Assembly (NCBI GenBank): GCA_963704435.1
Contig: OY969902.1
Location: 270,001-302,000 of the forward strand
Reading direction: 5' to 3'
Length of the DNA: 32,000 nucleotides
From: an uncultured archaeon
Lineage (GTDB): Archaea > Micrarchaeota > Micrarchaeia > Micrarchaeales > CABMGC01
Shown: piece by piece, positions 840 to 24,038 of the stretch
Numbering within the stretch: position 1 is the first letter of the stretch
Layout: each line of letters opens with the position of its first letter
Position numbers and translations under genes: made by a program
The notes under the pieces: model-generated
The model's database searches: none
What the model saw: only the letters and a program-made list of their open reading frames with translations
What the model was told of the DNA's origin: nothing

Positions 840-890
840 GCCAATCCAGGGATTTAAATATCTTGACTTCTACAACCAACTGTGTGAGCT

Positions 891-3722: not shown

Positions 3723-3726
3723 ATAA

Positions 3727-3867
3727 TCAGGTTGTCTTCAGCCAATTTAAGATAGCTTCTTCTACAGCAGTGCTTATGCTCCCCTTTTTGAAACCGAACT
3801 TCTCCGCAGCCTTCCTGCGAAGTTTTTCCTCGAGAGCATCGGAAATTACGATCTGCATCCTACCCAT
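3727..3867 (-). CDS. Ribbon-helix-helix (CopG/Arc-like) small DNA-binding protein, orphan antitoxin-like
   Basis: The track ORF is 3727..3915 (62 aa). The likely product starts at the internal Met: MGRMQIVISDALEEKLRRKAAEKFGFKKGSISTAVEEAILNWLKTT. This is a beta-strand, helix, helix pattern typical of RHH antitoxins. No partner toxin ORF is adjacent. Confidence 0.5.
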   Translation of the reverse strand: MGRMQIVISDALEEKLRRKAAEKFGFKKGSISTAVEEAILNWLKTT

Positions 3868-3956
3868 TTCTACACAAAAACATTTATACACACATACATT
3901 TATATTCCTTTTCAATCATATATACACACATACAGCTATGTGTTTGAGGCACGGAT

Positions 3957-4964
3957 ATGGAAAAAATGGAGGTTCTGCAAACGGTGGGTGGGAAGCTAAC
4001 CTATAGCCAGGACTGGCCAGCTTACAACAAGGCCCAGATCCAGGAGAAAACTCTTTTCATGCGCCTATTGCATGAACTTTGCAATGAGATAGAAGAGCCA
4101 ATGTATGTTTTTGGCAGGCCGAAAAAGCTTCGTGGAGACATGGTATTCAGCTCTGCCTTGAAGGTATACACTACCTTTTCGCTTAGGCGTTTCATGACCG
4201 ACATGGAAACTGCTTTGAAAGAAGGATACCTCAAAAATCGATGCTCATATAGCACAGTTAGCAACTATATGAGGAGTGAAAAACTAACAGTAATACTGAA
4301 AGATCTGATAATGCTATCTGCAATGCCGTTGAAAACAGTAGAAACTCAATTTGCAGTGGACAGCTCTGGCCTGAGAACAACAAAATTTAGCGACTACTGC
4401 AGAGAGAAGCACCACATGAGCCAGTCCCATCTATGGGTAAAGGTCCATGCAATCTGTGGAGTAAAAACCAACATCATAACGGCAGTGGAGCTCGGATTTG
4501 ACAACCATACTGCGGACAGTCCGCAATTTGCGCCTCTCGTAAGCGCAACGGCAAAGATGGGGTTCGGGATAAAAGAAGTATCTGCAGACAAGGCCTACAG
4601 TTCAGTAGCCAATTATAATGTGGTACAAGATGTTGGCGGACAGGCATACATTCCGTTCAAAAGCAATACAACTGCATTATCGAGTTACAGCAAAGGAACT
4701 CGAGGAAAATTGTGGAGAAGGATGTTTCATTACTTCCAGCTAAATCAGGAGGAATTTCTGGAGCATTACCATAAGAGGAGCAACATCGAAAGCACGTTCT
4801 TTATGATAAAGGCAAAGTTCACGGATTTGATAAGGAGCAAGGATGAAACCGCACAGATAAATGAGGTGCTTTTAAAGGTTTTATGCCATAATATCTGTGT
4901 GTTAATCCAGCAGATGTTTGAGCTGGGGATCGAACCTGATTTCTTGAAGGGTGAAACCACATGA
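3957..4964 (+). CDS. DDE transposase, IS4/IS5-type
   Basis: 335 aa. Candidate catalytic residues are in AVDSSG, SADKAY and YHKRSNIESTFFMIK, the last fitting the Y-x2-R-x3-E-x6-K signature of IS4/IS5-type transposases. The element ends were not resolved. Confidence 0.8.
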   Translation: MEKMEVLQTVGGKLTYSQDWPAYNKAQIQEKTLFMRLLHELCNEIEEPMYVFGRPKKLRGDMVFSSALKVYTTFSLRRFMTDMETALKEGYLKNRCSYSTVSNYMRSEKLTVILKDLIMLSAMPLKTVETQFAVDSSGLRTTKFSDYCREKHHMSQSHLWVKVHAICGVKTNIITAVELGFDNHTADSPQFAPLVSATAKMGFGIKEVSADKAYSSVANYNVVQDVGGQAYIPFKSNTTALSSYSKGTRGKLWRRMFHYFQLNQEEFLEHYHKRSNIESTFFMIKAKFTDLIRSKDETAQINEVLLKVLCHNICVLIQQMFELGIEPDFLKGETT

Positions 4965-5084
4965 AGGTAAGTAATTTATTCTTAAGTATTCAAAGCAGGG
5001 TTACGCAAAATGCGTTCTGGCAACGCTATACAAGAGGCCATCTGCTTTTGGGTGATCTTTCGTTGTTAGCGAAGCCAGTGCAAA

Positions 5085-6095
5085 TTGGTGTCAAATATGA
5101 TTAGAACCGATTCAAAAACTGGTGAGTTCCTTGACGTTAACCAAGTGCATAAGGGCGATGCGAGGATTCTGCTGAAAAAAGTCCAGCCGAATTCCATAAA
5201 ATTGAGTGTGTGGTCACCACCTTATCATGTTGGAAAGGAGTATGAAAAAGGCATGTCATATGAGGATTGGGTTTCATTGCTTCGGGAAGTAATAAAGGAG
5301 CACTACGAGATACTTGTGCCAGGAGGTTTCCTTGTAATAAACATAGCTGACATTTTGTGCTTTAAAGATAAGTCCATGCCCAGAATCCAGGCTTTGAATC
5401 TAAACAGGCAGCGCAGTCAAGTTACTAAAACTGACATATTAAAGGCCATGTCCAATCACCCTGATTTCAACCGAGATCAACTTGCATTGTTGCTGGGTTG
5501 CAGCGAGCAAACAATAGACAGGCGATTACACGGCAACAATATACGTGGCGGTAAATACTCGGACCAAACGAGAGTTAAGGTTGTCGGGGGTTTGATAGAA
5601 TCATTTGCTTTAGAAGCAGGGCTGTACCCTTACGATAGGAGAATATGGGTAAAGGATCCAGCGTGGGCAAATTCAAAGTTCTCGACGCTTTCATATAGAT
5701 CAGTAGATGAATTTGAATACCTGTATTTCTTCTGGAAGCCAGGCGTCACAGAAATAAAAAGAGAAAGACTCACAAACGATGAATGGGCTGACTGGGGCTA
5801 CAGAGGCGTGTGGAAGATTCCATCAGTCAGATCAAATTACGACCACGAAGCGAAATTTCCAGAAGAGTTGCCCTCCAGAGTTATACGCCTATTGACCGAT
5901 CCTGGCGACATAGTATTGGACTGTTTTATGGGGAGCGGAACAACGGCCATAGCCGCACTTAAAAACAACAGGCAATATGTGGGCATAGAGTTATTTGCCA
6001 AATATGTAGCCCTATCCAACAAGAACATCAAGGATGCGATTAAAAAGAGAGACCAATCTTTAAAGCAGAGCCGTCTTGCCAAATCTTGGAACTGA
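5085..6095 (+). CDS. Beta-class N4/N6 DNA methyltransferase (SPPY type)
   Basis: 336 aa. Catalytic motif IV VWSPPYHVGKEYE lies N-terminal and SAM motif I VLDCFMGSGTTAIAA lies C-terminal, which is the beta permutation. An inserted HTH-like segment reads DQLALLLGCSEQTIDRRLHG. The track start is TTG 5085; ATG 5097 is equally plausible. Confidence 0.85.
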   Translation: MVSNMIRTDSKTGEFLDVNQVHKGDARILLKKVQPNSIKLSVWSPPYHVGKEYEKGMSYEDWVSLLREVIKEHYEILVPGGFLVINIADILCFKDKSMPRIQALNLNRQRSQVTKTDILKAMSNHPDFNRDQLALLLGCSEQTIDRRLHGNNIRGGKYSDQTRVKVVGGLIESFALEAGLYPYDRRIWVKDPAWANSKFSTLSYRSVDEFEYLYFFWKPGVTEIKRERLTNDEWADWGYRGVWKIPSVRSNYDHEAKFPEELPSRVIRLLTDPGDIVLDCFMGSGTTAIAALKNNRQYVGIELFAKYVALSNKNIKDAIKKRDQSLKQSRLAKSWN

Positions 6096-6920
6096 TAGCC
6101 AGCCATCTTTAGAAGGGGATATCCTAACACAGCGCCACGAATCAATCTTTGAGAGCGGATTCAGTTTTATTCTTGTGCGCTTGTGTTTGAAAGCCAATTC
6201 ATCTTTGCCAGGGGTCATAATTCCAGAAACTTTTGAATAGAACGGGCCATCAAACATCAATAGTCCATTAGGAACTGAAATGACTTCCATGTACTCCAAT
6301 GGTTGCGTGCCCTTGCTTTTAACAGAATAGACTACTTTCAGGAAAAATGTCAGACAGTATTTCAGTTTTCCGTCTTTTGTAACATAGATCGGAGGCAACT
6401 CTGGTTGAAACTCCATCGAACGTCGAGGCCCATTAACTTTTATTTTTGAGTTCAGGTAACCAGTCGAATTCCAGATATGCCCATCTCCTGAGATCTGGTT
6501 AGGACTTACTACGACTTCATCTGGATTATCATTTGGACCAGTGAGTTTAATGTCGAAATGAATCACTGCAGTATTAGTCATGAATCTGACATCTCCACCA
6601 AAGGGCAGCCCTACAAATTCTAAATCTGGGAAGGTATCGTCTAATCCCATAATCAGATTCTGGCTAATGGATTTTTCTCCGACCTCTCCCCACGGTATAG
6701 AATCTTCACGTGGCTTTCGCCCTCTTGGACGTGGAGCATAATTCCACCAGAAAGGTTTAAGATATACGGCTTCGTCGAATTCTGATTTGAGTTTGGGTGC
6801 CGCATTTAGACATAAATCAACAAGCTTCGTGCTATACTGTTTTTCCAAGTTTATGAGAGTTTCTGGATGTTTGATTGCTTCTTCTCTGGCCTTCATATAG
6901 CTCTCTTTGAAATCATCCAT
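6060..6920 (-). CDS. Hypothetical protein, candidate cognate type II restriction endonuclease (PD-(D/E)XK-like)
   Basis: 286 aa. Convergent with the methyltransferase, 3' ends overlapping by 36 nt. GGDVRFMTNTAVIHFDIKL fits D-x13-D-x-K. There is no other recognisable motif, so the call rests on context. Confidence 0.4.
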   Translation of the reverse strand: MDDFKESYMKAREEAIKHPETLINLEKQYSTKLVDLCLNAAPKLKSEFDEAVYLKPFWWNYAPRPRGRKPREDSIPWGEVGEKSISQNLIMGLDDTFPDLEFVGLPFGGDVRFMTNTAVIHFDIKLTGPNDNPDEVVVSPNQISGDGHIWNSTGYLNSKIKVNGPRRSMEFQPELPPIYVTKDGKLKYCLTFFLKVVYSVKSKGTQPLEYMEVISVPNGLLMFDGPFYSKVSGIMTPGKDELAFKHKRTRIKLNPLSKIDSWRCVRISPSKDGWLSVPRFGKTALL

Positions 6921-12498: not shown

Positions 12499-13119
12499 TT
12501 AGAGAACCTTGTCTGCGTTATCCTTTCTGGCAGCGTTCAGTTCCATACAGACTTCCTTCCTAAGTCTTTTGCTGTATTTTTTTAGGTATAGTTCAAGCTT
12601 GTCCTTGTCAATCTCCTTAGCCAAATTATCCATCGCATCGTCCCTGATGCCATGCTTGTAATACACCAGGTCAATAAGCGTCTTCTCAGGATCCGACACA
12701 GGGAGCCACATGTCATAATGCTTGACGAAACCGAATCCAAAGAACAGTTTTGGCTTCACTCGCTTCACAATATAGTTCGCTCCTATGAACTCCCTCAGGC
12801 CCTCCCTGACGCCATTTGTGGTCATCACCACAGGGTTCGTCGCCTGGGTCCAGAAGTTCCTATATGAGAGCGCGTCCTCGAGCCCGTAATAAAAAGGCCT
12901 AAACGCGAAGCCAACAATCGCGAGATCATCGTGAAAAGTGTATGTGCCCCTACTTATCCTGTGTATCTCTCCCGTCTTCATCAGGTGGTTAATGAGCAGC
13001 TTTAGGTATCTCTGGCTTATGCCCAAGCTGCCCAGTAGGACCCTCGCATCGCTGAGTGTGAATATGGGATAGTCCGCGCTGCAGAACCTCTCCCTCAGCA
13101 GGCTTACATATTTGGTCAT
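12499..13119 (-). CDS. AbiEi-like (COG5340-type) wHTH antitoxin / transcriptional regulator
   Basis: 206 aa. N-terminal wHTH with ...KTGEIHRISRGTYTF (the RGxY motif of the AbiEi N-domain) and C-terminal PEKTLIDLVYY block. A 4-nt ATGA overlap links it to the upstream nucleotidyltransferase gene. Confidence 0.7.
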   Translation of the reverse strand: MTKYVSLLRERFCSADYPIFTLSDARVLLGSLGISQRYLKLLINHLMKTGEIHRISRGTYTFHDDLAIVGFAFRPFYYGLEDALSYRNFWTQATNPVVMTTNGVREGLREFIGANYIVKRVKPKLFFGFGFVKHYDMWLPVSDPEKTLIDLVYYKHGIRDDAMDNLAKEIDKDKLELYLKKYSKRLRKEVCMELNAARKDNADKVL

Positions 13120-13781
13120 TGGATCCTATCTCTTATGTATTCCACCAGGCTCGCGAACGAAGGCACGGGCCCTTCATATATGAGGTCCTTCAATCTCTCT
13201 TCCTCTTTTCGCATGCCCTTCTCCACATCTATCGCAGATACGAATGCCTTCAATTGCGGCCTTACCTCGCCAATATCTGCGAAATCTACCAAAATGCGCA
13301 GGTCATATAAGTCAGTTATCGATCTGCGGCCATTGTATGCGCTTATCTTTTCTAGTACTAAGGCTTCGGGAGGCAAGGTCAAAACCTCTCCGAAGGTGCC
13401 ATCCAGATTCTCATACTGCCTTATTACCGGATTCTTGTAATACGCCTTGTAGTTGATGTCTATCTCCGAGTATATCCCATCCATAAGTAATTCCATATAG
13501 ATGAGATTTCCCGTGTCCTTGAGCTTTATTACCTCAGCACCGTAGTCTTTCGCAGTGTCTCTTATTCTCTCCTTCAGCTCCTGCCATTTCGTCTGCGACG
13601 CCACGTAAATATCAATATCCTTCGAGAATCTTCTTCCTCCATAGCATCGCCATATGGCCGTGCCACCATGTATCTCAACTGTGCTATCCATTCCATAAAT
13701 GATTTTGACCATCACGTCTTCAAGCAAGGCGACGTCCCTGTGCGCTCGCTTTCGCAGCCTATTCATGAGCGGTATGTTCAT
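13116..13781 (-). CDS. AbiEii/AbiGii-family nucleotidyltransferase toxin (DUF1814-like)
   Basis: 221 aa. IHGGTAIWRCYGGRRFSKDIDIYV matches the GGTAL...R.S.DLDF NTase signature. Later blocks are EKISA and DLYDL. Confidence 0.75.
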   Translation of the reverse strand: MNIPLMNRLRKRAHRDVALLEDVMVKIIYGMDSTVEIHGGTAIWRCYGGRRFSKDIDIYVASQTKWQELKERIRDTAKDYGAEVIKLKDTGNLIYMELLMDGIYSEIDINYKAYYKNPVIRQYENLDGTFGEVLTLPPEALVLEKISAYNGRRSITDLYDLRILVDFADIGEVRPQLKAFVSAIDVEKGMRKEEERLKDLIYEGPVPSFASLVEYIRDRIQ

Positions 13782-13786
13782 TTAAA

Positions 13787-13882
13787 TAACCAAAGTTCAT
13801 ATTATAATATAACTTAGGTAAATCAATATATATAAATCTTTTGTTTTCATAACCAAAGTTATATTATACTATAACCTAGGTG
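13787..13882. repeat. Imperfect 33/34-bp direct repeat (two copies, 63 bp period) in the AbiE-1 promoter region
   Basis: ataaccaaagttcatattataatataacttaggt (13787-13820) versus ataaccaaagttatattatactataacctaggt (13850-13882). One indel and two mismatches. Confidence 0.75.
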
Positions 13883-13887
13883 ATGCT

Positions 13888-16095
13888 TCAGATCACAATG
13901 ACTTTATCCTTTCCTGCGATTATATCGAAGGCTTTTGTGTCCCGCTTCTTTTCTCCAAGGATAGCTACCCTGTATTTTTTACCTGAGATGACGCCTTCTA
14001 CTAAGATAAATCCGTTGTTATCCGATTCCCCTTCAAAAATCTTTTCCCCAACATAGAACACCTCCGCCTTGGCGTGACTCTTCGATTCTCCACCCACACC
14101 AGTGAATCTTATCTTCATAGGGCTTCTTACAAGTTCTCTACATCCCACTTCGAGCGTTACTTCATCCACTTTAGCTGGGCTCTCTGTACTTTGCTGCGAA
14201 ATCTTCACGAATACGGAATCTACCATGTTCTTTCCTGTTGCCGAATTCTCAATGCGGCTCAGTGCGCATATCCTGTGCTCAAGCGTCTTGAGCCTCTCGA
14301 TTACGGCCTCCCGCTCAGTTTCATTGAAAGGCAGGTCGTCGGCTGCAAACTTGGCTACGTCCGAACTCTGCCTGAAATAGAGCTTCGTTTGGCAGAGGCG
14401 CCTTATGCTTGGCTCGATGTCAGTAACGTTGTGCGTAATGAGGATAAGTCCTACGCCCTTCTTCCGGAAATCCTGTATCCTCTGTTTCAGGTCTGCCGTT
14501 GCGGCCGACTTTTCTTCCCTTCCGAATATCAGTTGCGCCTCTTCCAAGCAGATCAGCATCCTAAGGGCGTTATCCCCCAATATGTCTAACGAATCGGAAA
14601 AACCATAAGTCTGTCCAAGTATCAGCGCATAAAAGAAGGGCTTCATCTTATTGCTTACGTTTGAAAGGTCGAATACGACACCCTTTTCAAGAATCGCGCC
14701 GAAGTCGATTCCATCTGCGAACGCAAACTCGGGCCTGTTCAACATCAGCCTCAGATTTTCCAATGACGCCTTTACGTTTTCTCCGTGTTTTGTATATTTC
14801 ACGCTCGCATTCGTCTTCGTCGAATGCTGCTCTATGATTGCTGCCTCTATCGCGTTGTATACTTCGACAGGATCTGGTGCGCGTGTGTTCCTATAGACTT
14901 TATGAAACGCTGCGAGCAGGCACTTCTCCAAGGAATCTTGATACGGCCCTGCGTTTGACGCAGATGCCAGCAGCATGGCTAAGTTCTCATAGAACCTCTC
15001 TAGGTTTATGCTCGCGTCGCATTTGAAGAAGTTTATGGGCACTTTTGAAAGGTAAGGGCTGATCACATAAGATCTATTCGTGCGACCAACCGCGTTCCAT
15101 TCCTCGGTTGGAGATATCACGATTGACTTTGAATTTCTTTCCTTCATTACCTCTTCCACAATGCGCCTAGCAGCAAAGGTCTTTCCTGTCCCAGGAACTC
15201 CAGTTACGAGAGTCCCTAAATTCAACGTTTTCTCACTTATTCCTATTTCCTGTTCGGTCTCTCTTACAGAGCCTTCGAGGTAGTTGCCTATAACTATGCC
15301 TCCGACCTGTAATCCGCTAACAGTATTTATTGTCCTAAGCATTCTTGTCCTGTCTGAGAATCCAAGCATCATTGACACGTGCTTGGCATCGTTCGGAATC
15401 GCGTCTATTCCCCTAAGTCTATCAAGTATTTCCGATAGGGGACCCCCTTCGGTTTCGAATTCATCAAGAATCAGCAGCCTGGACTTTAGGTATGCGTATA
15501 GGGGCATATCTCCATAATCTATTAGAATTGTTGTTTTGTATGCAGTGCCATTCGCAAGCATTGCCCCGTCCAGTGATTCTAGAATTCCAATGAGCGCTTT
15601 TCTTTCATCCGACTCATAATAAAGATCCCGTTGTAGTGCATCAGTCTCCGAATATGAATTTAATCGGGTACTGAGGCTTTTTGTGAGCCGTATGTCCTTC
15701 TGGCTGATTCTCTCCTCCACCTTTCCTTTCACCTCACTAATGTACTTCTTGTTTACTGGTGCAAAAGACACAAGTAGCGCGGAAGCAGCTCCCCCAAAAA
15801 TTCGATACATGACATCAAAGGTGCCTTCACTCTCGCTTGCGGGAAATGCTATGATGCACCTTTTCCTGCCAGGCCATGATAGCTCCTTTTCTGAGATAGC
15901 AAACTCTGCACCAGGCAGTGCTTTCTTGACTGTTTCTACTCCATCTTCATTCTCGGTTGCCAGGAAGGTTTCCCGCCTTTTAAGGTCGTGGTACATGGCA
16001 AACTGCGCACCGAGAAGAGACTCCACGAGTAGCTTTCTGTCCATTTCACAGGGTAGCGAGAGTATCTTCGCAATCTTAAGATTATTGTTCGTCAT
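13888..16095 (-). CDS. HerA/FtsK/DUF87-type P-loop ATPase with C-terminal beta-sandwich-like domain (last gene of the T4SS-like operon)
   Basis: 735 aa. Walker A GVPGTGKTF, Walker B MLICLEEAQ, RKKGVGLILITHNVTD. No TM segment. The C-terminal 80 aa (MKIRFTGVGGESKSHAKAEVFYVGEKIFEGESDNNGFILVEGVISGKKYRVAIL) resemble a carboxypeptidase-regulatory/prealbumin-like fold. Confidence 0.8.
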   Translation of the reverse strand: MTNNNLKIAKILSLPCEMDRKLLVESLLGAQFAMYHDLKRRETFLATENEDGVETVKKALPGAEFAISEKELSWPGRKRCIIAFPASESEGTFDVMYRIFGGAASALLVSFAPVNKKYISEVKGKVEERISQKDIRLTKSLSTRLNSYSETDALQRDLYYESDERKALIGILESLDGAMLANGTAYKTTILIDYGDMPLYAYLKSRLLILDEFETEGGPLSEILDRLRGIDAIPNDAKHVSMMLGFSDRTRMLRTINTVSGLQVGGIVIGNYLEGSVRETEQEIGISEKTLNLGTLVTGVPGTGKTFAARRIVEEVMKERNSKSIVISPTEEWNAVGRTNRSYVISPYLSKVPINFFKCDASINLERFYENLAMLLASASNAGPYQDSLEKCLLAAFHKVYRNTRAPDPVEVYNAIEAAIIEQHSTKTNASVKYTKHGENVKASLENLRLMLNRPEFAFADGIDFGAILEKGVVFDLSNVSNKMKPFFYALILGQTYGFSDSLDILGDNALRMLICLEEAQLIFGREEKSAATADLKQRIQDFRKKGVGLILITHNVTDIEPSIRRLCQTKLYFRQSSDVAKFAADDLPFNETEREAVIERLKTLEHRICALSRIENSATGKNMVDSVFVKISQQSTESPAKVDEVTLEVGCRELVRSPMKIRFTGVGGESKSHAKAEVFYVGEKIFEGESDNNGFILVEGVISGKKYRVAILGEKKRDTKAFDIIAGKDKVIVI

Positions 16096-16101
16096 AACAC
16101 A

Positions 16102-16386
16102 TCACCTTAAGATGAAGATGAAGACCGCGAGTATCAGCAGGTTGATTGTTGCGCATGCAACGGACCTTCCGAACCTGCCCCTTATCGCTGGTTTTTGGCT
16201 GCCCTTCGAGTGCAATATAAGAGAGGTCGCCATGGCCGCGGCCATTATGGGAAAGACGCACCACGCCATACCAAACAGCACGCACGCTATCGATATTGTC
16301 GAGGCCAGGCCTGCCGCCAAGACCAGGCGCACCAGGCGGCATTCTCCGTGCGACATACGCGCATACATTTCTTTAAATCCGGCCAT
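16102..16386 (-). CDS. Small membrane protein (94 aa, about 3 TM)
   Basis: Hydrophobic segments LVLAAGLASTISIACVLFGMAW, VFPIMAAAMATSLIL and ATINLLILAVFIFIL. Its start overlaps the upstream stop (TGATG). Confidence 0.5.
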   Translation of the reverse strand: MAGFKEMYARMSHGECRLVRLVLAAGLASTISIACVLFGMAWCVFPIMAAAMATSLILHSKGSQKPAIRGRFGRSVACATINLLILAVFIFILR

Positions 16387-16571
16387 CAGAGCACCAAATA
16401 GACTATGACTGAAACTGCAAATAGCGCCAGAAAACTCTCCGCCTGCCTCATCAGCGTCTCCTTCCTCTTTCCGAACCCCGCGTCGCTCACTATCAGACAG
16501 GAGAATAGGATGCTTGAGGCCAACCCACTGAATCCTATCGCAATTCTGACAAACTCTAGAAGGATATCCAT
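16386..16571 (-). CDS. Small membrane hairpin protein (61 aa, 2 TM with basic loop)
   Basis: IAIGFSGLASSILFSCLIV - GFGKRKETLMRQ - FLALFAVSVIVYLVL. Abuts the upstream gene with 0-nt spacing. Confidence 0.5.
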   Translation of the reverse strand: MDILLEFVRIAIGFSGLASSILFSCLIVSDAGFGKRKETLMRQAESFLALFAVSVIVYLVL

Positions 16572-17180
16572 CTAAACCACTTTCACATCCAAGCAGTATC
16601 CCATCATATACGCCATGAGCAGGCCCCCCGGTTCGCTCTCGAAAGACAGCAACCGCGCGATCAGCGCGCGCTTGTCTGCAGCAAAAATCTCGATTTTTCC
16701 CCTTCCCTGCTTCCTGAGGTATGCGCCAAGCGCGTCCAGCCTTTCAGCATCGATTAATCCAAGCTCTGCGAATGCCCTTTCCTCCATTGGCTTTACGCGG
16801 GCACAGCCATTCCAAGAGCCGTTCGTAAGGAGTAGGTCATATGCGATTCTCCTGAACACCGCTCCATGCATGTCCTGTGCCTTCCCAACGTAGCCTCGCC
16901 ATAGCTCAAGCCCGCTTCCTCCAAGGGCACATGCTGCGCGAATACTGCCGAGCTCTCCTGCGCCGTAGTTCTCAGCGCAGCTGATTGGTAGGTTATACGC
17001 TAGTTGGCGGGCATCCGAGATATCTCCATGCGCGACGCTGTCTGCGCAGCCAATTTCTTCAGCGCACCGTATCTTTACCTTGGCTTCCGGAAGCCTCACC
17101 TCTTTCATCATCAGCATGAGAAGTACGCCGAGGGGTATAGGCAGTATCTGAAGAGCTATCTGCGAGAAAGCGCTGATCAT
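16572..17180 (-). CDS. N-terminally membrane-anchored Cys-containing protein (202 aa), unknown function
   Basis: TM/signal anchor IALQILPIPLGVLLMLMM followed by a soluble domain with 6 Cys. ATGA overlap with the upstream gene. Confidence 0.5.
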   Translation of the reverse strand: MISAFSQIALQILPIPLGVLLMLMMKEVRLPEAKVKIRCAEEIGCADSVAHGDISDARQLAYNLPISCAENYGAGELGSIRAACALGGSGLELWRGYVGKAQDMHGAVFRRIAYDLLLTNGSWNGCARVKPMEERAFAELGLIDAERLDALGAYLRKQGRGKIEIFAADKRALIARLLSFESEPGGLLMAYMMGYCLDVKVV

Positions 17181-17854
17181 AGCCTCACCAAGCTGAATCT
17201 ATCGGCACTCAGGCGTATGGCCTTGTATCCGCTTTCGTTGATGTCGCGCAGCGCGCTCTCTATATCATCGCGTTCCACATTCACAATCTTGGATATCGCT
17301 TCTATGCTCTGGTTGTTTGCGCTCTCAAGGATTATCAGCCTGTGGAGCAGTCTCCTGTTCTTATTGAGCACGGCATTATGCATTTCATTCAGTCTCCGGT
17401 TCTCTTTCGTGAGCCCGATGATTCTCTTCGAGAGTATTATGTCCGAATTATCGGGCCGAATCGGCGCATCTTCCTTGAATGCGCATCCCACCCTCTGCCA
17501 TGAAAGCGCGATGGCCAGGTAGGGGTACAGTCCCGCGAGCGAGATATCATAGTCCTTGCTTATGACCTGCATGACGCTGAGGAATCTCATGATTGCCTCG
17601 TCCAGGAAATAAAGCGGCGTAGTTTTGGAATATATGGAGATTGACGCGCGGGTTTTGTCTAGCTCTATGGAATAGAAGCGACTGCCCTGCTCCCCCTCTT
17701 CCAGCACATAGCCCAGCGTAGCACCATGCCTGACCTGCTTCAGGTTAGGGTAAACGCTTAGCTTTCGCTGCATTGCGTTCATGCAGGTAAGCAGCCTAGC
17801 CCCCACCTCGAGCTTGCTTATCAAGTAATTATCGCTCTTCCTTTCCCACTTCAT
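17177..17854 (-). CDS. Cytoplasmic protein (225 aa) with probable C-terminal winged-helix, unknown function
   Basis: No TM. A coiled-coil-like stretch (ENRRLNEMHNAVLNKNRRLLHRL) is followed by SIEAISKIVNVERDDIESALRDINESGYKAIRL. Overlaps the ATPase gene by 26 nt. Confidence 0.5.
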   Translation of the reverse strand: MKWERKSDNYLISKLEVGARLLTCMNAMQRKLSVYPNLKQVRHGATLGYVLEEGEQGSRFYSIELDKTRASISIYSKTTPLYFLDEAIMRFLSVMQVISKDYDISLAGLYPYLAIALSWQRVGCAFKEDAPIRPDNSDIILSKRIIGLTKENRRLNEMHNAVLNKNRRLLHRLIILESANNQSIEAISKIVNVERDDIESALRDINESGYKAIRLSADRFSLVRL

Positions 17855-18884
17855 TGATCTCTCCTACGCTTGAAACCGCAAAGGCAAATGCGTCTGCAAT
17901 ATCTTCGTCCTTTATGCCCAATCCCCTAGCCGAGACAAGGATCCGCCTTCGGTCCACTCCGCTTTCTATCAATTCCCTAATGAGCTCTGAAAGCTCCACG
18001 TATCCTGACTCTTCCGCTCTGCGCGATATCCTTGATGCGTGCGCGGAGTCGCAGATTTTACCCATCTCCGATTCAAACTTTTTTCTAGATACCTCCATAT
18101 CCATCAAATCACCTGCTCGTATCCTCAGGAACCTTTCAGGCACTATGCCAACCACCTTTTCTATGAAGAAAAGGCTGCGCCTGTTTGACGCATTTGTCTG
18201 AACGATTGCGCAGCTTCCGACATTCTGGTTCTGTATCCTCTCAATCTCCTTTCCAGTAATACCGTAGTTCCTGGCGAGGCCTTCAAGGCTCTGCATGTTC
18301 TGCAGCCTGAACGCGAACAGCGTAGCCGCATTGGACAGCATCGACATGTCCACATCTTCGATTAACTGCGATGAGAAGATCAGTCCGTGTCCGTATTTTC
18401 TACCCTCTCTGAGTACGGCCTCCAGAGGCCTACTGCTCCCAAGCAGTTTCCATGCTTCATCTAGCACTATGAACACTCTCCTGCCTCCGGCCTTGCTGAA
18501 ATCACGCATCTCCTCCGATATCCTTCCAAGAATCTTGTCTGCCGCGTCGACCTTGTCTCTCTCACGTTTCATTCCGCCCAGATCAAAATGGATGATGCCT
18601 TTCGAGCGGTCTCCAATCTCTTTTGGGAAGTCTTCCGGAGCAGCGCTTCGCAGCCCGACAAGTTCAACGAAACCCCTATACTCCCCCGTAAAGTCTATGA
18701 CAACCACCAGCGAGTCCATCATTACAGAGAGCCGGAGCATGAGGCTCTTCATCAGGTAGGTCTTTCCGCTCCCAGTCACCCCGCATATGAATATGTGTGG
18801 GTTCATCAGCTGCTCAAAATTCAGGAAGCAAGGGAGAAAGTGCGCGTTCCCTACGAATACCCCTGCCTTGGAGTTCTTGAGCAC
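17829..18884 (-). CDS. VirB4/TrbE/CedB-like ATPase, C-terminal P-loop domain (frame open upstream to 18998)
   Basis: 351 aa from GVG-context GTG 18884. Walker A ICGVTGSGKTY, Walker B RRVFIVLDEAWKLL, REGRKYGHGLIFSSQLIEDV, which is the VirB4-type motif set. Confidence 0.8.
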   Translation of the reverse strand: MLKNSKAGVFVGNAHFLPCFLNFEQLMNPHIFICGVTGSGKTYLMKSLMLRLSVMMDSLVVVIDFTGEYRGFVELVGLRSAAPEDFPKEIGDRSKGIIHFDLGGMKRERDKVDAADKILGRISEEMRDFSKAGGRRVFIVLDEAWKLLGSSRPLEAVLREGRKYGHGLIFSSQLIEDVDMSMLSNAATLFAFRLQNMQSLEGLARNYGITGKEIERIQNQNVGSCAIVQTNASNRRSLFFIEKVVGIVPERFLRIRAGDLMDMEVSRKKFESEMGKICDSAHASRISRRAEESGYVELSELIRELIESGVDRRRILVSARGLGIKDEDIADAFAFAVSSVGEINEVGKEER

Positions 18885-18967
18885 CTCGCCAAGGCTCTGC
18901 GCGTACGTCTTCGGGAACCTGACTAGTTGCGCGATTCCGCGCGGGCTGGATATGTATGACTGCCGGT

Positions 18968-19702
18968 TCAGACGACCACCCGCTGCAGAGAGGCCTCTTC
19001 AAGCAGCGCCTCACCCCTTAGGGTCTCGCATTCGAACCCAAGCACCGATGCGAACGCGCTCGCGATCCTTCCGATGTTTTTCTCGGATTCCAAGGAGGCC
19101 TCAATCTCGCTTTTGCTTAGGCCAAACGTCTTCAATTTGGCCTCTATCGATAGCGGTTTCTGCTCTCTGAGGTTTCTCAGCTCCCCCTCGATCACACTCA
19201 GCTCCCTCTTGAGCGCGTTCATCCTGTCGTACTTCTGCGGATCTGACCGGGATATCTCAATCTCTTTCATCCTCCTTTTCGTCTCAAGCCCATCAATTAC
19301 TCTAATCCTGTCCACGCTCTTGATCCCTAGGCTAAACTCGAAAGGGAAGTCTACGTTGGAGATGAGCGTTTCCATGAGTTCGCCGTTCATACCAGTATCG
19401 CCAGCAGGTTTCATCAGCGCAATAGAGACCGCCAGGTGCCTGCTCCCCATATCTTTTGTTGCTGAGTACAGGCTTCTGCTCAACTTGAAGCCGCAATATG
19501 GCCCAACGGGTCCGGCGCGCTTCAGCACCAGGTCATTTATCAGGTGGCCTGAGCTGAAGAAGAGCGCGGCAAGAAGGAGGCTTGCGATTGCAAAGGCAAG
19601 GATATAAACGTTCAGGGTCAGCATGCTGGCAAGGAACATGGCTATTGCTGCCGAATAGAAGGCATACGAATATATCCTATAGAACTCCCTTTCTCGCATC
19701 AC
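18968..19702 (-). CDS. Two-TM protein with soluble domain; candidate VirB3-like anchor plus VirB4 N-terminal domain
   Basis: 244 aa. TM1 YSAAIAMFLASMLTLNVYIL, TM2 AFAIASLLLAALFF, then a 180-aa soluble region. It ends within the open upstream frame of the ATPase ORF. Confidence 0.5.
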   Translation of the reverse strand: MMREREFYRIYSYAFYSAAIAMFLASMLTLNVYILAFAIASLLLAALFFSSGHLINDLVLKRAGPVGPYCGFKLSRSLYSATKDMGSRHLAVSIALMKPAGDTGMNGELMETLISNVDFPFEFSLGIKSVDRIRVIDGLETKRRMKEIEISRSDPQKYDRMNALKRELSVIEGELRNLREQKPLSIEAKLKTFGLSKSEIEASLESEKNIGRIASAFASVLGFECETLRGEALLEEASLQRVVV

Positions 19703-19703
19703 A

Positions 19704-20693
19704 TCACAGAAGGTTCAATCTCTTGAGGGGCACTTCAGATCCAAGAAGTCTTGATAGCTCGCTCACCGATATTCCGGTAATCGCAAGGCTGAACGCAGGC
19801 ATCACGAAGGCGTATACTATGAAATGTCCCACCTCAGTGAAAATGCCGTTGAGCAGGCTCGCTATCCAGGATCCGATTCCGCCTATCCATGACAACAGGC
19901 TCACGTTGTCCAGGCCCTTGTCTGCGATGGACGTCGCGCTGTTAGTTATACCTTCAGAAGTAAGGGTCACCGCGCTTGATCCAGTCTCATTCGTCGCCAA
20001 CGTGTATGAGTTTGATATTGTAGCATTCATCACATAGGTCAGGGGGAACACTACATATAGGCATATTGCCAAAGCGATCAGGAATCCGCCAGTCTTCCTT
20101 GTAGGATAGAAAGACCTCAGGATCAGGCCGAGCGGAAGGATTAGGGTGAGGGCGCTTACTGCTATGAACGCAAGGACCGAGGCTTGCACAGTGACGCTTA
20201 CTGCGGCAGCACCGAGCGCCTGGACCGCGCTCTGTATTTGGCTCAGTATGGGGCTCAGAAAGACCTTGAACAGCCCCAACGCCGCGTAGAGCGGCAGCAG
20301 GACCATTATCAGGCCCATGATGTTCGTCAATATCGAATTGTAGGGGGTTCCAAGGAAATAGTACTGGCTTGAACCCACAAGATAGTTGTAGGCAAAGCAT
20401 ATTGCGGAGTTGTACGACATGAAATTGCTGCAGCTCGCCTGTGTCCCATTCCCCATCACAATGGAGTTCATGAGTGAATCCATCACCCCGTTGTTCACGA
20501 ACAGGAGCAAAAGCCCTCCGACCAATGCACCGTTTATCACCGATTGGATTATCTCGTCCCTCCCGAACTCCTTGAGCTTCTTGACGTTTGCCGCATATCC
20601 CGTTCCGAGCGCGATGCCCCCTATCGCGAGCATAATGCTCACGAGCGCTATGGCTATGTTCAGGCCGTACGTGCCGAACGGCGTGGTCTGCAT
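19704..20693 (-). CDS. Polytopic membrane protein, VirB6/TrbL/CedA-like candidate
   Basis: 329 aa with about 6-8 hydrophobic segments and a Ser/Thr/Asn-rich presumably external loop (NATISNSYTLATNETGSSAVTLTSEGITNSATS). 1-nt gap to the next gene. Confidence 0.5.
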   Translation of the reverse strand: MQTTPFGTYGLNIAIALVSIMLAIGGIALGTGYAANVKKLKEFGRDEIIQSVINGALVGGLLLLFVNNGVMDSLMNSIVMGNGTQASCSNFMSYNSAICFAYNYLVGSSQYYFLGTPYNSILTNIMGLIMVLLPLYAALGLFKVFLSPILSQIQSAVQALGAAAVSVTVQASVLAFIAVSALTLILPLGLILRSFYPTRKTGGFLIALAICLYVVFPLTYVMNATISNSYTLATNETGSSAVTLTSEGITNSATSIADKGLDNVSLLSWIGGIGSWIASLLNGIFTEVGHFIVYAFVMPAFSLAITGISVSELSRLLGSEVPLKRLNLL

Positions 20694-20697
20694 TGGC

Positions 20698-21078
20698 CTA
20701 CACCATCGAATTCACGGTGATATTCGTCAGGAGGTGCGTTGATGCTATTGCAAGCCCGTTTGACGCAACGGATAGCACTGCAACGATGACCGCCCCCATT
20801 ATGACATCTATTGTCGTGGCATGGAACATCGCCCTCTTGCTTGGAGGGAGCAGCTGCCCGACCGCATAAAAGATTCCTGCGACGATGAACAGGACGGCGC
20901 TCAGCATCGGGCCGATGTGCGAAAGCAGGTCTTGGATGTAATTGAGCGTAGATATGATGTCCAGCGAAAATCCGGACGCGTACGTTTTTCCCGTCATCAG
21001 AAGCAGCGCCAGCAAGGCGAACTTGACGTATTTCTTGAGAATGACTGTCGGACGCAAATATGCCTCTTTTATATTCAT
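20698..21078 (-). CDS. Secreted two-helix hairpin protein, VirB2/TrbC/CedA1/TedC-like pilin candidate
   Basis: 126 aa. Signal peptide KKYVKFALLALLLMTGKTYA/SG. The mature part has helix 1 GPMLSAVLFIVAGIFYAVGQLL, basic loop PPSKRAMFH, then helix 2 IDVIMGAVIVAVLSVASNGLAIA. First gene of the operon. Confidence 0.55.
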   Translation of the reverse strand: MNIKEAYLRPTVILKKYVKFALLALLLMTGKTYASGFSLDIISTLNYIQDLLSHIGPMLSAVLFIVAGIFYAVGQLLPPSKRAMFHATTIDVIMGAVIVAVLSVASNGLAIASTHLLTNITVNSMV

Positions 21079-21095
21079 ATTCCCACCATTATACC

Positions 21096-21116
21096 TAAGT
21101 AAATTATATTTACTTA
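21096..21116. promoter_or_regulatory. Palindromic operator-like site TAAGTAA-N7-TTACTTA upstream of the T4SS-like operon
   Basis: A perfect 10-bp inverted repeat ctaagtaaat-tat-atttacttag (21095-21117) lies 17 nt upstream of start 21078. It sits between an AT-rich TATA-like stretch (21118-21131) and the start codon. Confidence 0.45.
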
Positions 21117-21207
21117 GATAAATATATAAGCATTTGGATTCATATAGATATAAGCTCCTGTGAAGGTGATTGGTTTAAAGGCTAACCGGATTCACAAGAT
21201 TTAAATA

Positions 21208-21226
21208 TAAGTAAGACTATCTTACT
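21208..21226. promoter_or_regulatory. Second copy of the operator motif (TAAGTAA-N7-TTACT) at the AbrB-RelE promoter
   Basis: taagtaagactatcttact lies immediately upstream of ATG 21230. The TATA-like tttaaatata is at 21200-21209. Confidence 0.4.
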
Positions 21227-21229
21227 ATT

Positions 21230-21502
21230 ATGGAAACGACCATAGAGATGACCAAAACGAGCTCAAAAGGCCAGATAGTATTGCCGAAGGATATTAGAAC
21301 AAGATTGCATATCAAAAAGGGCACCGTATTTAGCTTGCAGGCAAAAGGCAAGGTGATTTTATTGAGGAAGATAGACAATCTAGCTCTTAAGGAGGATTTA
21401 GAAACATTGAAGCGCGTGAAAGCGGCGTGGGATGCCATAGAGCATGGGAGGTTCCACAAAGCGAGCAAAGAAGCATTTCTCAAGGAGCTGGACACATGGT
21501 AG
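21230..21502 (+). CDS. AbrB/SpoVT/MazE-type antitoxin
   Basis: 90 aa. SSKGQIVLPKDIRTRLHIKKGTVFSL is the swapped-hairpin AbrB DNA-binding signature. Its stop overlaps the start of the next gene (ATGGTAG). Confidence 0.8.
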   Translation: METTIEMTKTSSKGQIVLPKDIRTRLHIKKGTVFSLQAKGKVILLRKIDNLALKEDLETLKRVKAAWDAIEHGRFHKASKEAFLKELDTW

Positions 21503-21744
21503 AAGTTATCTGGACTGATGACTTTAGAGAGGAAGTCCAGAAAATCAGAGATGGATTGCTCAAAGAAAGAGTAAAGAAACAAATAGCGAAAATCGTTGAC
21601 GATCCAGACCGAGGCAAACCTCTGAGATTTGATATGAAAAGTGAACGTACGATCTATGTCAAACCTTTCAGATTAATTTATTCAGTAACTGGAAATAAGA
21701 TATACTTACTTCGATTTGAGCACAGAAAAGGAGTCTATGATTGA
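21496..21744 (+). CDS. RelE/ParE-family toxin
   Basis: The track ORF starts at 21427, but the likely start is ATG 21496, overlapping the antitoxin stop. 82 aa: MVEVIWTDDFREEVQKI...GKPLRFDMKSERTIYVKPFRLIYSVTGNKIYLLRFEHRKGVYD matches the RelE/ParE C-terminal pattern (yRiiY...v.ll.i.hRk.vY). Confidence 0.72.
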   Translation: MVEVIWTDDFREEVQKIRDGLLKERVKKQIAKIVDDPDRGKPLRFDMKSERTIYVKPFRLIYSVTGNKIYLLRFEHRKGVYD

Positions 21745-21827
21745 TATTCTCTTACGGCAGTTTCTTATTCTTATTTAATTCCTTAGCAGTAGGCATAAAT
21801 ATGCCCGACGCGACGCTATTTCGTTGT

Positions 21828-21913
21828 ATGCGGAAGGTCGAGGTCGAGATCAGAAGCCCGATATCGCCTGCGGAATACGCCAGGCTCATGTGTTCTTCAA
21901 GAGGAAGGGTTGG
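21828..21913 (+). pseudogene. Decayed fragment of a CYTH-gene 5' end
   Basis: MRKVEVEIRSPISPAEYARLM is 19/21 identical to the N-terminus of the intact CYTH gene at 23505. A 1-nt deletion after codon 21 breaks the frame. Similarity starts 15 nt upstream of the ATG and ends about 15 nt before the AbiEii-2 stop. Confidence 0.65.
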
Positions 21914-21927
21914 TGATGCTTGTGCGG

Positions 21928-22704
21928 TCACAGAAGCCCGTCCCTTTTTACAGCGCTTATGACTGTTCCGCTCACGTATTCATACCCCTCCAAAGTATGC
22001 TGCACGAACGGCTGGAGGGTCGTCCACGTGGCCTGAACTTTATCTATGCATTCTCCGAGCCATTTTCCCGAAAAATCGATTTTCGACTCCTTAAGCTTTC
22101 TTAAGACCAGTCCCTTACTTATGGACGTCCCCTTTCCGATCAGGTAATAGATGTCATACAGGTCGCGTTCCTTGTGCTTCCTGCCTGCGCTCATCAGCGC
22201 CCTGAATTTTTCGGAGAGTATCTCTTGCTTGTCCATCACGAGCGCGACGTAGTTCCTCGCATCAGCATACACGGGAGTTCTCGGCATCGGGACGGCCTTT
22301 TCGATAAGGACCGCCGTGGTATTTATCTCAAAAATTATCCTCTGCAGGGTGCTTCGCTTCCCGTTGTACCTCGGGCCTTCGATATCTATGGCTGCCTCGA
22401 TCGTGCCGAACGTGTTTACGGCCGGCTCGTCCACGTATCTTGCCGTATACTGAATAGACTTCAGTGCGGAATCAATCAGCTTCCTGGCTCCAGCCGCGTC
22501 TATCCTTCGGGATGTGAAATCCAGGTCCTCCGAGAACCTGTCGGAATTGTAGAATTTCGATATCGCGGTGCCGCCCTTGAAGACGAATTCATCTGTGGTG
22601 TTCGAGTATACCGAGGACAGGAGAAGGTCCTGAAGGTAATCCTTCTCCATCTGGTACTTGTCCTTGTACGTTGTGTACCCCTCGAGCTCCTCTTTTGTCA
22701 TCAT
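21928..22704 (-). CDS. AbiEii/AbiGii-family nucleotidyltransferase toxin (DUF1814-like)
   Basis: 258 aa. FKGGTAISKFYNSDRFSEDLDFTS is the canonical signature. Later blocks are EKFRAL and RDLYDIYYL. Confidence 0.8.
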   Translation of the reverse strand: MMTKEELEGYTTYKDKYQMEKDYLQDLLLSSVYSNTTDEFVFKGGTAISKFYNSDRFSEDLDFTSRRIDAAGARKLIDSALKSIQYTARYVDEPAVNTFGTIEAAIDIEGPRYNGKRSTLQRIIFEINTTAVLIEKAVPMPRTPVYADARNYVALVMDKQEILSEKFRALMSAGRKHKERDLYDIYYLIGKGTSISKGLVLRKLKESKIDFSGKWLGECIDKVQATWTTLQPFVQHTLEGYEYVSGTVISAVKRDGLL

Positions 22705-23276
22705 GCGACCACCAGTCCATTTAACACCCGCTCGATGCGCCTCCTGATCGTGCCCACGCCAGCCATCGCAAGGTATCTCGATAGCGTGCTGAGGTCAACC
22801 TTGTTTTTCTCTAGCATCTCATCGGCATATTCGTAGAAGATATTGAAGTATATCATGTCTATTATGGCTTTCTCAGGGTCCGCGACGAATGCGCCGTCCA
22901 CCTTCCTGTAGCCGAACATCATCCCTTTCTTGACATTCCTGAACTCCACCCTGTATCCGTTTATGTCCGCGATGGGCGCATGCCTCTTTGTTGTAACGAT
23001 GTAGATTGTGTTCGGGATCTGCTCGGTGAGGTTATGGAACCTGAGCGATGATATGAGGCTCACGTAGGACGGGTAGATTATGTTCGACGCTATCTCGTAC
23101 TCGGTCGCATCCCTCGTATAGTAGAGCCCCCTCTCAGCCAGCTTCAGAGCCTTGTCCCTGAACAGAAAGAGCGAAGCGTATGCCTTTGACTTCCCGATTA
23201 TTCTCGCAGTGTCAGCTATCGTAACTAGGTGGATGCCGTTACTGGAAAGATATTCGTTGAATTCTGACGTTTTCAT
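22701..23276 (-). CDS. AbiEi-like (COG5340-type) wHTH antitoxin / transcriptional regulator
   Basis: 191 aa. wHTH with ...LAERGLYYT (RGxY) and PEKAIIDMIYF block, similar to 12499..13119. 4-nt overlap with the downstream NTase. Confidence 0.7.
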   Translation of the reverse strand: MKTSEFNEYLSSNGIHLVTIADTARIIGKSKAYASLFLFRDKALKLAERGLYYTRDATEYEIASNIIYPSYVSLISSLRFHNLTEQIPNTIYIVTTKRHAPIADINGYRVEFRNVKKGMMFGYRKVDGAFVADPEKAIIDMIYFNIFYEYADEMLEKNKVDLSTLSRYLAMAGVGTIRRRIERVLNGLVVA

Positions 23277-23504: not shown

Positions 23505-24038
23505 ATGCCAAAAGTTGAAGTCGAGATTCGGAGCCTGATATCGCCTGCGGAATACGCTAGGCTCATGGGGTTCTTCAAGAGTGAGGGCCGGCTCGTCAGC
23601 AGGGAAAACCAGGTCACGCACTACCTGGACGACGCGGGCAGCCTGAGGATCCAGAGGAACGACTCCTTCGCGAAGCTCTGGCTTAAGAAGGGAAGGCTCC
23701 ATGATGCGGTTCATGAGGAACTCGAGGTGAGGTTCGGAAGGGGCGACTTCCCCCGGCTCGAGGAGATGCTCTCGGAAATGGGCTTCCCGGCAAGGACGAA
23801 GTGGTTCCGGCTTAGGCACACGTTCAGGTGGAAGGGCATAAGCGTCATGCTCGACAGGTCGAGGGGATACGGGAACATAATCGAGCTGGAGAAAATCTGC
23901 AGCAAGAAGGAGAAAGACGCGGCATTGCGGTTATTGGAAACCAGGCTCTCGCAGCTGGACATAGCCCGCACCCCTGAGAAGGAGTTCGACAGGAAATACG
24001 CCTGCTACAGGAGGAACTGGAGGAGGCTTACGCGCTAG
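23505..24038 (+). CDS. CYTH-domain protein (CyaB/ThTPase-like triphosphate tunnel metalloenzyme)
   Basis: 177 aa. N-terminal VEVEIRS is an ExExK-type motif (K to R). Alternating charged beta-strand pattern (LRIQR, LWLKKG, EELEVRF, RHTFRW, VMLDR, IIELE). Confidence 0.72.
   Translation: MPKVEVEIRSLISPAEYARLMGFFKSEGRLVSRENQVTHYLDDAGSLRIQRNDSFAKLWLKKGRLHDAVHEELEVRFGRGDFPRLEEMLSEMGFPARTKWFRLRHTFRWKGISVMLDRSRGYGNIIELEKICSKKEKDAALRLLETRLSQLDIARTPEKEFDRKYACYRRNWRRLTR

Follow-up and report, generated by a model that had tools for sequence, protein, structure and literature searches.

The Ced and Ted systems of archaea are domesticated type IV secretion systems (T4SSs): they keep parts resembling VirB2, VirB6 and VirB4 but no relaxase, and the function of Ced is DNA import (PMC9905601). 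Ced employs a pair of ATPases, CedB and CedD, and the N-terminal domains of the pair jointly resemble that of VirB4 (PMC11868833). In Patescibacteria, relaxase-less T4SSs with VirB2-like pilins are required for epibiotic growth (PMC12102498, PMC12857230). T4SS-like tubes have also been observed at a parasite–host interface where host RNA is consumed (bioRxiv 10.64898/2026.06.21.733656). For DPANN archaea, the sole account touching on T4SSs that was found in open-access papers and bioRxiv describes VirB4-like domains within giant proteins of nanohaloarchaea (PMC10266531). Here we analyze a nine-gene operon on the minus strand of a 32-kb stretch of DNA (the window; contig OY969902.1, positions 270,001 to 302,000) from an uncultured archaeon of the phylum Micrarchaeota, with the genes named g1 to g9 in order of transcription (g1 → g9). 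We hold with moderate confidence that the operon encodes a chromosomally fixed (domesticated) minimal T4SS-like machine of Micrarchaeota, akin to Ced and Ted, the substrate of which is most likely nucleic acid passed between contacting cells, by uptake.

This assignment draws on the combination by which Ced and Ted are defined: a pilin like VirB2, a polytopic membrane protein encoded next to it and a VirB4 motor tethered to the membrane, in a locus that occupies a fixed site and has no self-transfer genes. A sequence-only reading of the same DNA had already proposed a T4SS-related, Ced/Ted-like apparatus, and the pilin match of g1, the VirB4 fold of g3, the ATPase g4 and the co-conservation of g1 to g8 all support it. 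For comparison, loci were gathered by exact-protein look-ups (L007, L008, L009, L010, L011, L012, L013, L014, L016 and L027), so that phyletic distribution was sampled via eleven loci. Gene order and near-equal gene sizes are kept in at least 10 other Micrarchaeota metagenome loci, and g1 to g6 were detected by phmmer or hmmsearch in nearly every complete locus. The homologs are named Micrarchaeota, Micrarchaeales or Micrarchaeia, with a few metagenome-assembled genomes labeled Marsarchaeota, and the organism is accordingly a DPANN archaeon, its genome about 1 Mb in size.

Probable Pilin, Proposed Split VirB4 and Candidate Channel

The first gene, g1 (20698-21078, minus strand, 126 aa), reads as a VirB2/TrbC-like pilin precursor. 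Its sequence scores 27.3 bits against Pfam TrbC (cut-off 27.9) and 21.2 bits against T4SS_pilin, and the TrbC/VirB2 family of Pfam is matched by seven of nine g1 orthologs, in line with the T4SS-related apparatus proposed earlier. The alignment of the family displays a signal-peptide-like leader ending in a small-residue motif (...YASG in g1), two invariant hydrophobic helices with a PxxKRA loop between them, and a conserved NxT sequon at the C-terminus. Comparison with TrwL of R388 by hhalign extends over 65 columns at E 0.0012, with the elements in register. The protein is thus probably a VirB2/TrbC-type pilin, an assignment that is marginal for the single sequence and consistent over the family.

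The product of g3 (18968-19702, minus strand, 244 aa) begins with two transmembrane (TM) helices in a VirB3-like position and continues into a soluble part that, in an AlphaFold2 model (pLDDT 78.2), adopts a fold like that of the VirB4 N-terminal domain. When this model was searched against the PDB with Foldseek, ranks 1-11 and 13 were taken by TrwK/VirB4 of R388, with probability 0.99-1.00, E 2e-4 to 3e-2 and about 165-173 columns; the link comes from one predicted model and one search program. Since g3 has no P-loop and 4ag5, which comprises the VirB4 C-terminal domain only, is not among its Foldseek matches, the similarity appears to be to the N-terminal domain of VirB4. Neither Pfam, NCBIfam nor a PDB profile search returned a sequence-level family for g3.

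The ATPase encoded by g4 (17829-18884, minus strand, 351 aa as listed from GTG 18884; 17829..18971, 380 aa from CTG 18971) is a member of the HerA/VirB4 superfamily that consists of the C-terminal (RecA-like) domain only, followed by a helical tail. It lies above the Pfam cut-offs for AAA_10 (44 bits) and DUF87 (42.8 bits), and the Walker A, Walker B and sensor motifs quoted beforehand (GVTGSGKTY, VFIVLDEAW and RKYGHGLIFSSQ) were located within it. Its best NCBIfam matches are CedB (51 bits), the anti-phage HerA model (41) and VirB4_CagE (40), all far below the equivalog cut-offs, and a PDB profile search places HerA 8wiv first (2e-16), with VirB4 4ag5 at 4e-6. The VirB4 component therefore survives profile and structure searches, through the g3 model and the AAA_10 and DUF87 matches of g4, in an altered form: g4 is a VirB4/HerA-superfamily ATPase, as proposed, but it corresponds to the C-terminal ATPase domain and not to a full VirB4, and the motifs once read as a VirB4/TrbE set are not specific, the sequence lying between HerA, CedB and VirB4.

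Taken with the structural model, these results suggest that g3, with a VirB3-like TM hairpin and a VirB4 N-terminal domain, and g4, with a VirB4/HerA C-terminal domain, together constitute a split VirB4. Orthologs of g4 are stand-alone proteins of 370-377 aa, and the wider set of homologs spans 344-391 aa save for two distant outliers of 460 and 520 aa. We also considered that g3 and g4 might be one frameshifted gene, and rejected it: none of 120 g4 homologs is fused to g3, and the junction is a stop/start overlap, as expected of two coupled genes. At positions 3115-5536 of another locus (L015; GCA_900175155.1), a distant g3-like (276 aa) and g4-like (520 aa) pair is followed by small membrane ORFs, with no recognizable g1 or g2; the system may thus exist in a further lineage in a form that has diverged more.

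The junction itself bears on the extent of g4. The sequence-only reading had treated 18885-18967 as the one larger gap in the operon while noting that it was an open frame. The open frame stands, in that these 83 nt are open in the frame of g4 only; the gap does not, because the 27 codons align with the N-termini of g4 homologs (for example, LVRFPKTYAQSLGE vs. LIRFPELYTQTLGE), and the interval is thus the coding 5' end of g4. The methionine of g4 orthologs aligns with a CTG at 18971-18969, which overlaps the g3 stop codon TGA at 18970-18968. In a relative at 59% identity (L007) the same g3/g4 junction reads ATGA, whereas it is CTGA in the three closest genomes (the window, L016 and L027), where the upstream peptide is conserved; at every locus whose junction was read, the g3 stop overlaps the g4 start. 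Initiation of g4 at the near-cognate CTG by termination-reinitiation is, from these sequences, most likely. The CTGA-start region corresponds to 18884-18971 of the window and to 2205-2294 of L016, and occurs also in L027; gene callers shortened g4 to 351 aa in four assemblies.

Between the pilin and the split motor lies g2 (19704-20693, minus strand, 329 aa), a polytopic membrane protein with about six TM segments and a candidate VirB6/CedA/TedA-like channel. Its AlphaFold2 model (pLDDT 77.5, pTM 0.70) finds TrwI/VirB6 (8rt9_F) as its best PDB structural match, a weak one (E 0.19, probability 0.72, TM-score 0.32-0.35), with the runners-up at probability 0.25 or less. The family carries a conserved extracytoplasmic Cys pair. 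No family for g2 was found in Pfam or NCBIfam, and no TrbL/VirB6 Pfam match occurs in g2 or 10 distant relatives; a comparison of the g2 N-terminus with g1, which would have indicated a CedA/CedA1-type relation, was negative. The VirB6 component of the earlier proposal is retained as the top structural match of g2, but as an assignment that stays weak, and we call g2 VirB6-like only tentatively, on the strength of its model. A match to an ABC-transporter TM region in the PDB profile search (E 3e-4, 100 residues) was set aside as helical-bundle composition, not homology. The g2 family is large and entirely unannotated: the profile search gave 2660 clusters at 50% identity at E<=1e-3 and 1393 at E<=1e-10, far more than the 114 of a word-indexed search, and members of 590-1313 aa carry the g2-like region near the N-terminus.

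Comparison with Ted, Ced and Bacterial T4SSs

Ted of the Thermoproteales (TedC pilin, TedA channel, TedB VirB4-like ATPase; Beltran et al. 2023, PMC9905601) appears analogous in architecture to the Micrarchaeota cluster in being chromosomal and relaxase-less, in having a pilin with a cleavable-looking signal peptide (compare the g1 leader) and a polytopic membrane protein encoded beside it, and in its VirB4-like motor; the HerA-like second ATPase often found in the Ted locus is a possible parallel to g9. Unlike Ted, the cluster has its VirB4 split into g3 and g4, no ParA/MinD or Rad50 neighbor, and five extra conserved genes that are small or of no known family, and its host is a DPANN archaeon instead of a hyperthermophilic crenarchaeon.

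Ced of the Sulfolobales (CedA, CedA1, CedA2, CedB, CedD, CedE; PMC9905601, PMC11868833) likewise combines VirB2/VirB6/VirB4-like parts (the VirB6-like one in the cluster being the candidate g2) with a lack of self-transfer genes, has two paralogous HerA/VirB4-like ATPases, spreads VirB4 N-terminal function over more than one polypeptide and includes small two-TM partner proteins; CedB, as above, is the best NCBIfam match of g4. However, the 51 bits of g4 compare with a CedB cut-off of 700, and for CedD, with a cut-off of 600, g4 reaches 26.6 bits and g9 20.4 bits. CedB and CedD each hold their own TM segment together with N- and C-terminal parts, whereas in the cluster the N- and C-terminal domains are encoded by different genes; no signal peptide is processed from the Ced pilin, whereas g1 has a leader, like TedC; and the Ced genes are scattered and UV-induced, whereas the cluster is one operon. 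With equivalog scores this far under the cut-offs, a pilin that has a leader and genes that form a single operon, the cluster is not a Ced ortholog, and by sequence the Ced ATPases are related to g4 and g9 at the superfamily level only.

Among bacterial systems, the conjugative T4SS of monoderms (MPF-FATA) and that of Patescibacteria (PMC12102498) share with the cluster a VirB4, VirB6 (in the cluster, the candidate g2) and VirB3-like core in a cell with a single membrane and VirB2-like pilins in a monoderm cell, as well as the lack of a relaxase and fixation in the chromosome of an ultra-small, host-dependent organism. In contrast to them, the cluster is archaeal, has no recognizable VirD4, VirB8-like or VirB1-like component, and has an ATPase that is far shorter and split. 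All significant structural matches of g3, and the best one of g2, come from R388 Trw and Agrobacterium VirB (7o41-7o43, 8rt9, 8rtb, 8rtd), and TrwL of R388 aligns with g1. The R388 order of pilin, VirB3 and VirB4 is partly echoed by the order pilin, candidate channel, TM plus N-terminal domain, and C-terminal domain in the cluster, which differs from these systems in having no VirB7/9/10 outer-membrane core, VirB5, VirB11, VirD4 or relaxase, with sequence similarity that is essentially nil.

Several points weigh against a T4SS-like machine of this kind. On its own, g1 is slightly below the Pfam TrbC cut-off, and its profile matched no pilin chain among the PDB sequences, a set that presumably includes the solved archaeal pilins. 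The VirB6 match of g2 is not significant (E 0.19, TM-score about 0.33), and hhalign of g2 against the single TrwI sequence was negative. The same comparison of g3 with the single TrwK sequence was also negative, making the link of g3 to VirB4 a structural one only, and the Foldseek output, being without target coordinates, does not display the matched part of TrwK. By sequence g4 is at least as near HerA as VirB4, no role can be assigned to g5 to g8 or to the N-terminal half of g9, and sequence decides neither substrate nor direction, expression or pilus formation.

Operon Layout, Conservation and Chromosomal Setting

All nine consecutive minus-strand ORFs were verified in the ORF list of the window at the coordinates previously given, together with the junctions quoted for them. 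Gaps of 4 nt and 1 nt separate g1 from g2 and g2 from g3; g4 and g5 overlap by 26 nt, g5 and g6 by 4 nt (ATGA), and g7 and g8 by 1 nt (TGATG), while g6 abuts g7 and a 6-nt gap precedes g9. A hydropathy scan agrees with the topology first described, showing a leader and two helices in g1, six hydrophobic segments in g2, two N-terminal TM helices in g3, a single anchor in g6 and small membrane proteins in g7 and g8, with g4, g5 and g9 soluble. Proteins identical to the operon products occur in six independent assemblies (including an 839-kb contig, ENA ERZ25039481, and GCA_052915985.1), and divergent orthologs at 15-84% identity follow in the same order at ten other loci; the ORFs are therefore real and not chance open frames. 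GC skew is negative across 13-20 kb, consistent with minus-strand coding. The 5' intergenic region of g1 (21079..21229, minus strand) reads as AT-rich and lies in a bin (21001-22000) with a GC content of 0.41; a ribosome-binding-like motif, GGTGGG, stands 3 nt 5' of the g1 ATG, and the promoter of g1 is, as judged from sequence, probably within this region.

Among the remaining products, g5 (17177-17854, minus strand, 225 aa) is a soluble, basic protein present at all loci. A probable winged helix had been assigned to it, and a C-terminal winged-helix or helix-turn-helix domain is still probable: helix-turn-helix matches fall near its C-terminus (residues about 165-215), but they are scattered and all sub-threshold, and the PDB profile search gave nothing meaningful. 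The poorly conserved g6 (16572-17180, minus strand, 202 aa) has an N-terminal anchor and a variable insert; orthologs were found at most loci with weak phmmer E-values, and no family in Pfam or NCBIfam. It had been described as an anchored, Cys-containing protein, of which the anchor holds, while the Cys residues, though present, are not conserved in the alignment. Two small membrane ORFs follow, g7 (16386-16571, minus strand, 61 aa, two hydrophobic segments) and the basic g8 (16102-16386, minus strand, 94 aa), which are kept elsewhere as membrane ORFs of 60-110 aa with little sequence similarity: the g7 position holds an ORF of 60-62 aa in L007, L008, L009, L013, L014 and L016, weakly similar in sequence, and the g8 position an ORF of 60-110 aa at most loci, with similarity detected to L007 only.

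Last in the operon, g9 (13888-16095, minus strand, 735 aa) encodes a soluble, highly divergent P-loop ATPase of the HerA/VirB4 superfamily with a beta-rich C-terminal domain. Its Pfam scores for HerA_C (21.1 bits) and DUF87 (21.4 bits) are both slightly below the cut-offs, and its sole PDB sequence match is VirB4 4ag5 (E 0.003). By hhalign it aligns with g4 over the Walker B/sensor region (E 4e-5), and its N-terminus gave a negative result against g3; it has no TM anchor and matches TrwB_AAD_bind at E 0.039. The gene is found in the window, L007, L009, L012 and L016 and absent in L010, L011, L013 and L014; the corresponding slot of L008 (12810-14900) holds an unrelated 696-aa protein with no Pfam match, and in L013 and L014 there is nothing in this slot downstream of g8. 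Co-conservation of all nine genes, as first envisaged, thus applies to g1 to g8, the order of which is kept in ten other loci, but not to g9: since it is present in only five of ten loci, g9 is optional or accessory and the conserved unit comprises eight genes.

The superfamily membership of g4 and g9 also admits a reading in which the locus is a HerA-type anti-phage defense, or a module for packaging or egress taken over from a virus, and has only the FtsK/HerA ATPase fold in common with T4SSs. Both proteins match PADLOC models for HerA, mad8 and DndH as well as PHROG packaging-ATPase families, and the locus sits among Abi and toxin-antitoxin genes. These matches, however, cover the generic P-loop core only, none of the seven other products matches PADLOC or PHROGs, and neither the operon nor the flanking DNA encodes a nuclease, capsid, NurA, Sir2 or DUF4297 partner; nor do such systems feature a protein resembling a pilin, as g1 does, or one with the VirB4 N-terminal fold seen in g3. 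We consider this reading very improbable.

The surroundings of the operon argue for a fixed chromosomal site. On one flank it is followed by an AbiEii/AbiEi pair and then by Nre, NUDIX, prolidase and tRNA-Pro, and on the other by MazE/ParE, a second AbiE pair, CYTH, SOD, L10e, diphthamide synthase and translin. The cluster lies beside translin, diphthamide synthase and L10e in the window, L007, L008 and L014, and beside SOD in all of these except L014, whereas the toxin-antitoxin genes between the cluster and the housekeeping genes differ among the four genomes. Because gene order and housekeeping neighbors stay the same while the toxin-antitoxin genes change, the locus behaves like one inherited vertically with the chromosome, and unlike a mobile element.

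An integrated conjugative element or plasmid, persisting in a toxin-antitoxin island as a remnant or as cargo with self-transfer past or present, would account for the two AbiEi/AbiEii pairs and the MazE/ParE pair that flank the operon and for a DDE transposase and restriction-modification genes no more than 10 kb away. Against such an origin stand the constancy of the operon and its housekeeping neighbors in four divergent genomes, where the toxin-antitoxin modules vary and the operon does not, and the outcome of searches for the genes and sites of an element. Pfam scans of the nine products and 30 long flanking ORFs in the window found no relaxase, integrase, replication protein, VirD4 or VirB11, as did an NCBIfam scan of the nine products, so that the locus is, as had been stated, not obviously self-transmissible; the relaxase result carries the caveat that archaeal conjugative plasmids are also without recognizable relaxases (PMC9905601). 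No att-like direct repeat flanks the operon in the window, where the sole long direct repeat brackets an AbiE cassette; the tRNA-Pro, 4.4 kb from the operon, is unrelated to any repeat; and no close relative of the cluster was found among PLSDB plasmids (tblastn) or IMG/VR viral contigs. Judged by its sequence, then, the locus does not appear to be a self-transmissible conjugative element, and we regard descent from one within this island as improbable.

The island has features of its own. Three toxin-antitoxin modules surround the operon (12499-13781, 21230-21744 and 21928-23276; two AbiEi/AbiEii and one MazE/ParE), and related genomes carry other modules at the same spot (PIN, ParE/MazE, Fic), which marks it as a local hotspot of toxin-antitoxin turnover. 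The AbiEi/AbiEii cassette at 21928-23276 is bracketed by an imperfect direct repeat of 82 nt (84-89% identity; 21828-21909 and 23505-23587), of which the right copy is the 5' end of a CYTH-domain gene (23505-24038) and the left copy a truncated duplicate; from its sequence the repeat looks like a footprint left when a mobile toxin-antitoxin cassette inserted. In the interval that separates the g9 end from the AbiEii start (13783-13880; AbiEii gene at 13116-13781), two copies of a roughly 33-nt motif, CCTARGTTATAKTATAATATRAACTTTGGTTAT, stand 63 nt apart and may represent a duplicated promoter or operator. Farther away, 471-6920 is a defense and mobile-DNA stretch with a GC content of 0.40-0.45, below that of the rest of the window, that encodes a Vsr endonuclease and C5 cytosine methylase, an HATPase_c_3 protein, the DDE transposase (3957-4964), and an N4/N6 methylase with a BglI/SfiI-like restriction endonuclease.

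Proposed Mechanism and Biological Meaning

Around the gene set and the homologies of g1, g3 and g4, we infer a mechanism for a domesticated T4SS-like machine. The pilin g1 would be exported, relieved of its leader and polymerized into a thin VirB2-type pilus, which would grow on a membrane platform or channel formed by g2, through which the substrate would pass. A VirB3-like helical hairpin would anchor g3 in the membrane, and its VirB4-type N-terminal domain would dock g4, so that the two would rebuild a VirB4 motor powering pilin extraction and substrate translocation; the stop/start overlap (ATGA in relatives, CTGA here) would hold g3 and g4 in fixed proportion. Lineage-specific accessory parts may be supplied by g5 to g8 (a DNA-binding-like protein, an anchored protein and two small membrane proteins), and g9, where present, may be a second, soluble VirB4/HerA-like ATPase that feeds substrate or works as an additional motor, in the way that CedD accompanies CedB. 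The pairing of g4 with g9 and the placing of VirB4 domains on separate polypeptides parallel the finding on CedB and CedD (PMC11868833). Because nothing for self-transfer is encoded, we favor DNA uptake over the sending out of an element.

As the main alternative, the same machine might instead serve as a conduit to a host, taking up host RNA, nucleotides, lipids or proteins or injecting effectors, in episymbiosis and not in DNA exchange within a species. Micrarchaeota are a DPANN lineage with small genomes, the contigs here measuring 0.84-0.85 Mb, the cluster is chromosomal and conserved across the phylum, and the g2 family is very large. Precedents are the T4SS that Patescibacteria need for epibiotic growth (PMC12102498, PMC12857230) and the T4SS-like tubes at a parasite–host interface (bioRxiv 10.64898/2026.06.21.733656). 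On the other hand, none of the operon genes looks like an effector or adhesin gene, DNA is what is moved by Ced, the one group of archaeal relatives studied by experiment, and nothing here distinguishes the substrate. We judge this alternative unlikely, though far from negligible.

Searches of open-access papers and bioRxiv found no account of a cluster like this one from Micrarchaeota or from other DPANN archaea, and automatic annotations label g4 homologs "HerA-like", "VirB4 component" or "conjugative DNA transfer family protein" and the others hypothetical. Although the type of machine is known, its occurrence as a conserved core locus of a DPANN phylum appears to be undescribed, and so does the split VirB4. 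A bolder proposal, which we put forward only as a speculative possibility, is that the eight-gene core might be a phylum-wide, vertically inherited bridge that draws nucleic acids or other macromolecules from host archaea, possibly in further DPANN lineages, given the large g2 family; it would then be to archaea what the essential T4SS is to Patescibacteria, with a uniquely split motor.

It is an open question how DPANN archaea attach to their hosts and obtain material from them, and no dedicated transfer apparatus of Micrarchaeota has been defined in open-access papers or bioRxiv. The locus offers a concrete, conserved gene set that can be tested in existing Micrarchaeota–Thermoplasmatales co-cultures, and, on the reading favored here, it would extend the Ced/Ted idea of domesticated conjugation machinery beyond Thermoproteota. 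A natural split of VirB4 where its N-terminal domain meets the C-terminal one would, in addition, be informative on how the VirB4 motor is built and how it evolved.

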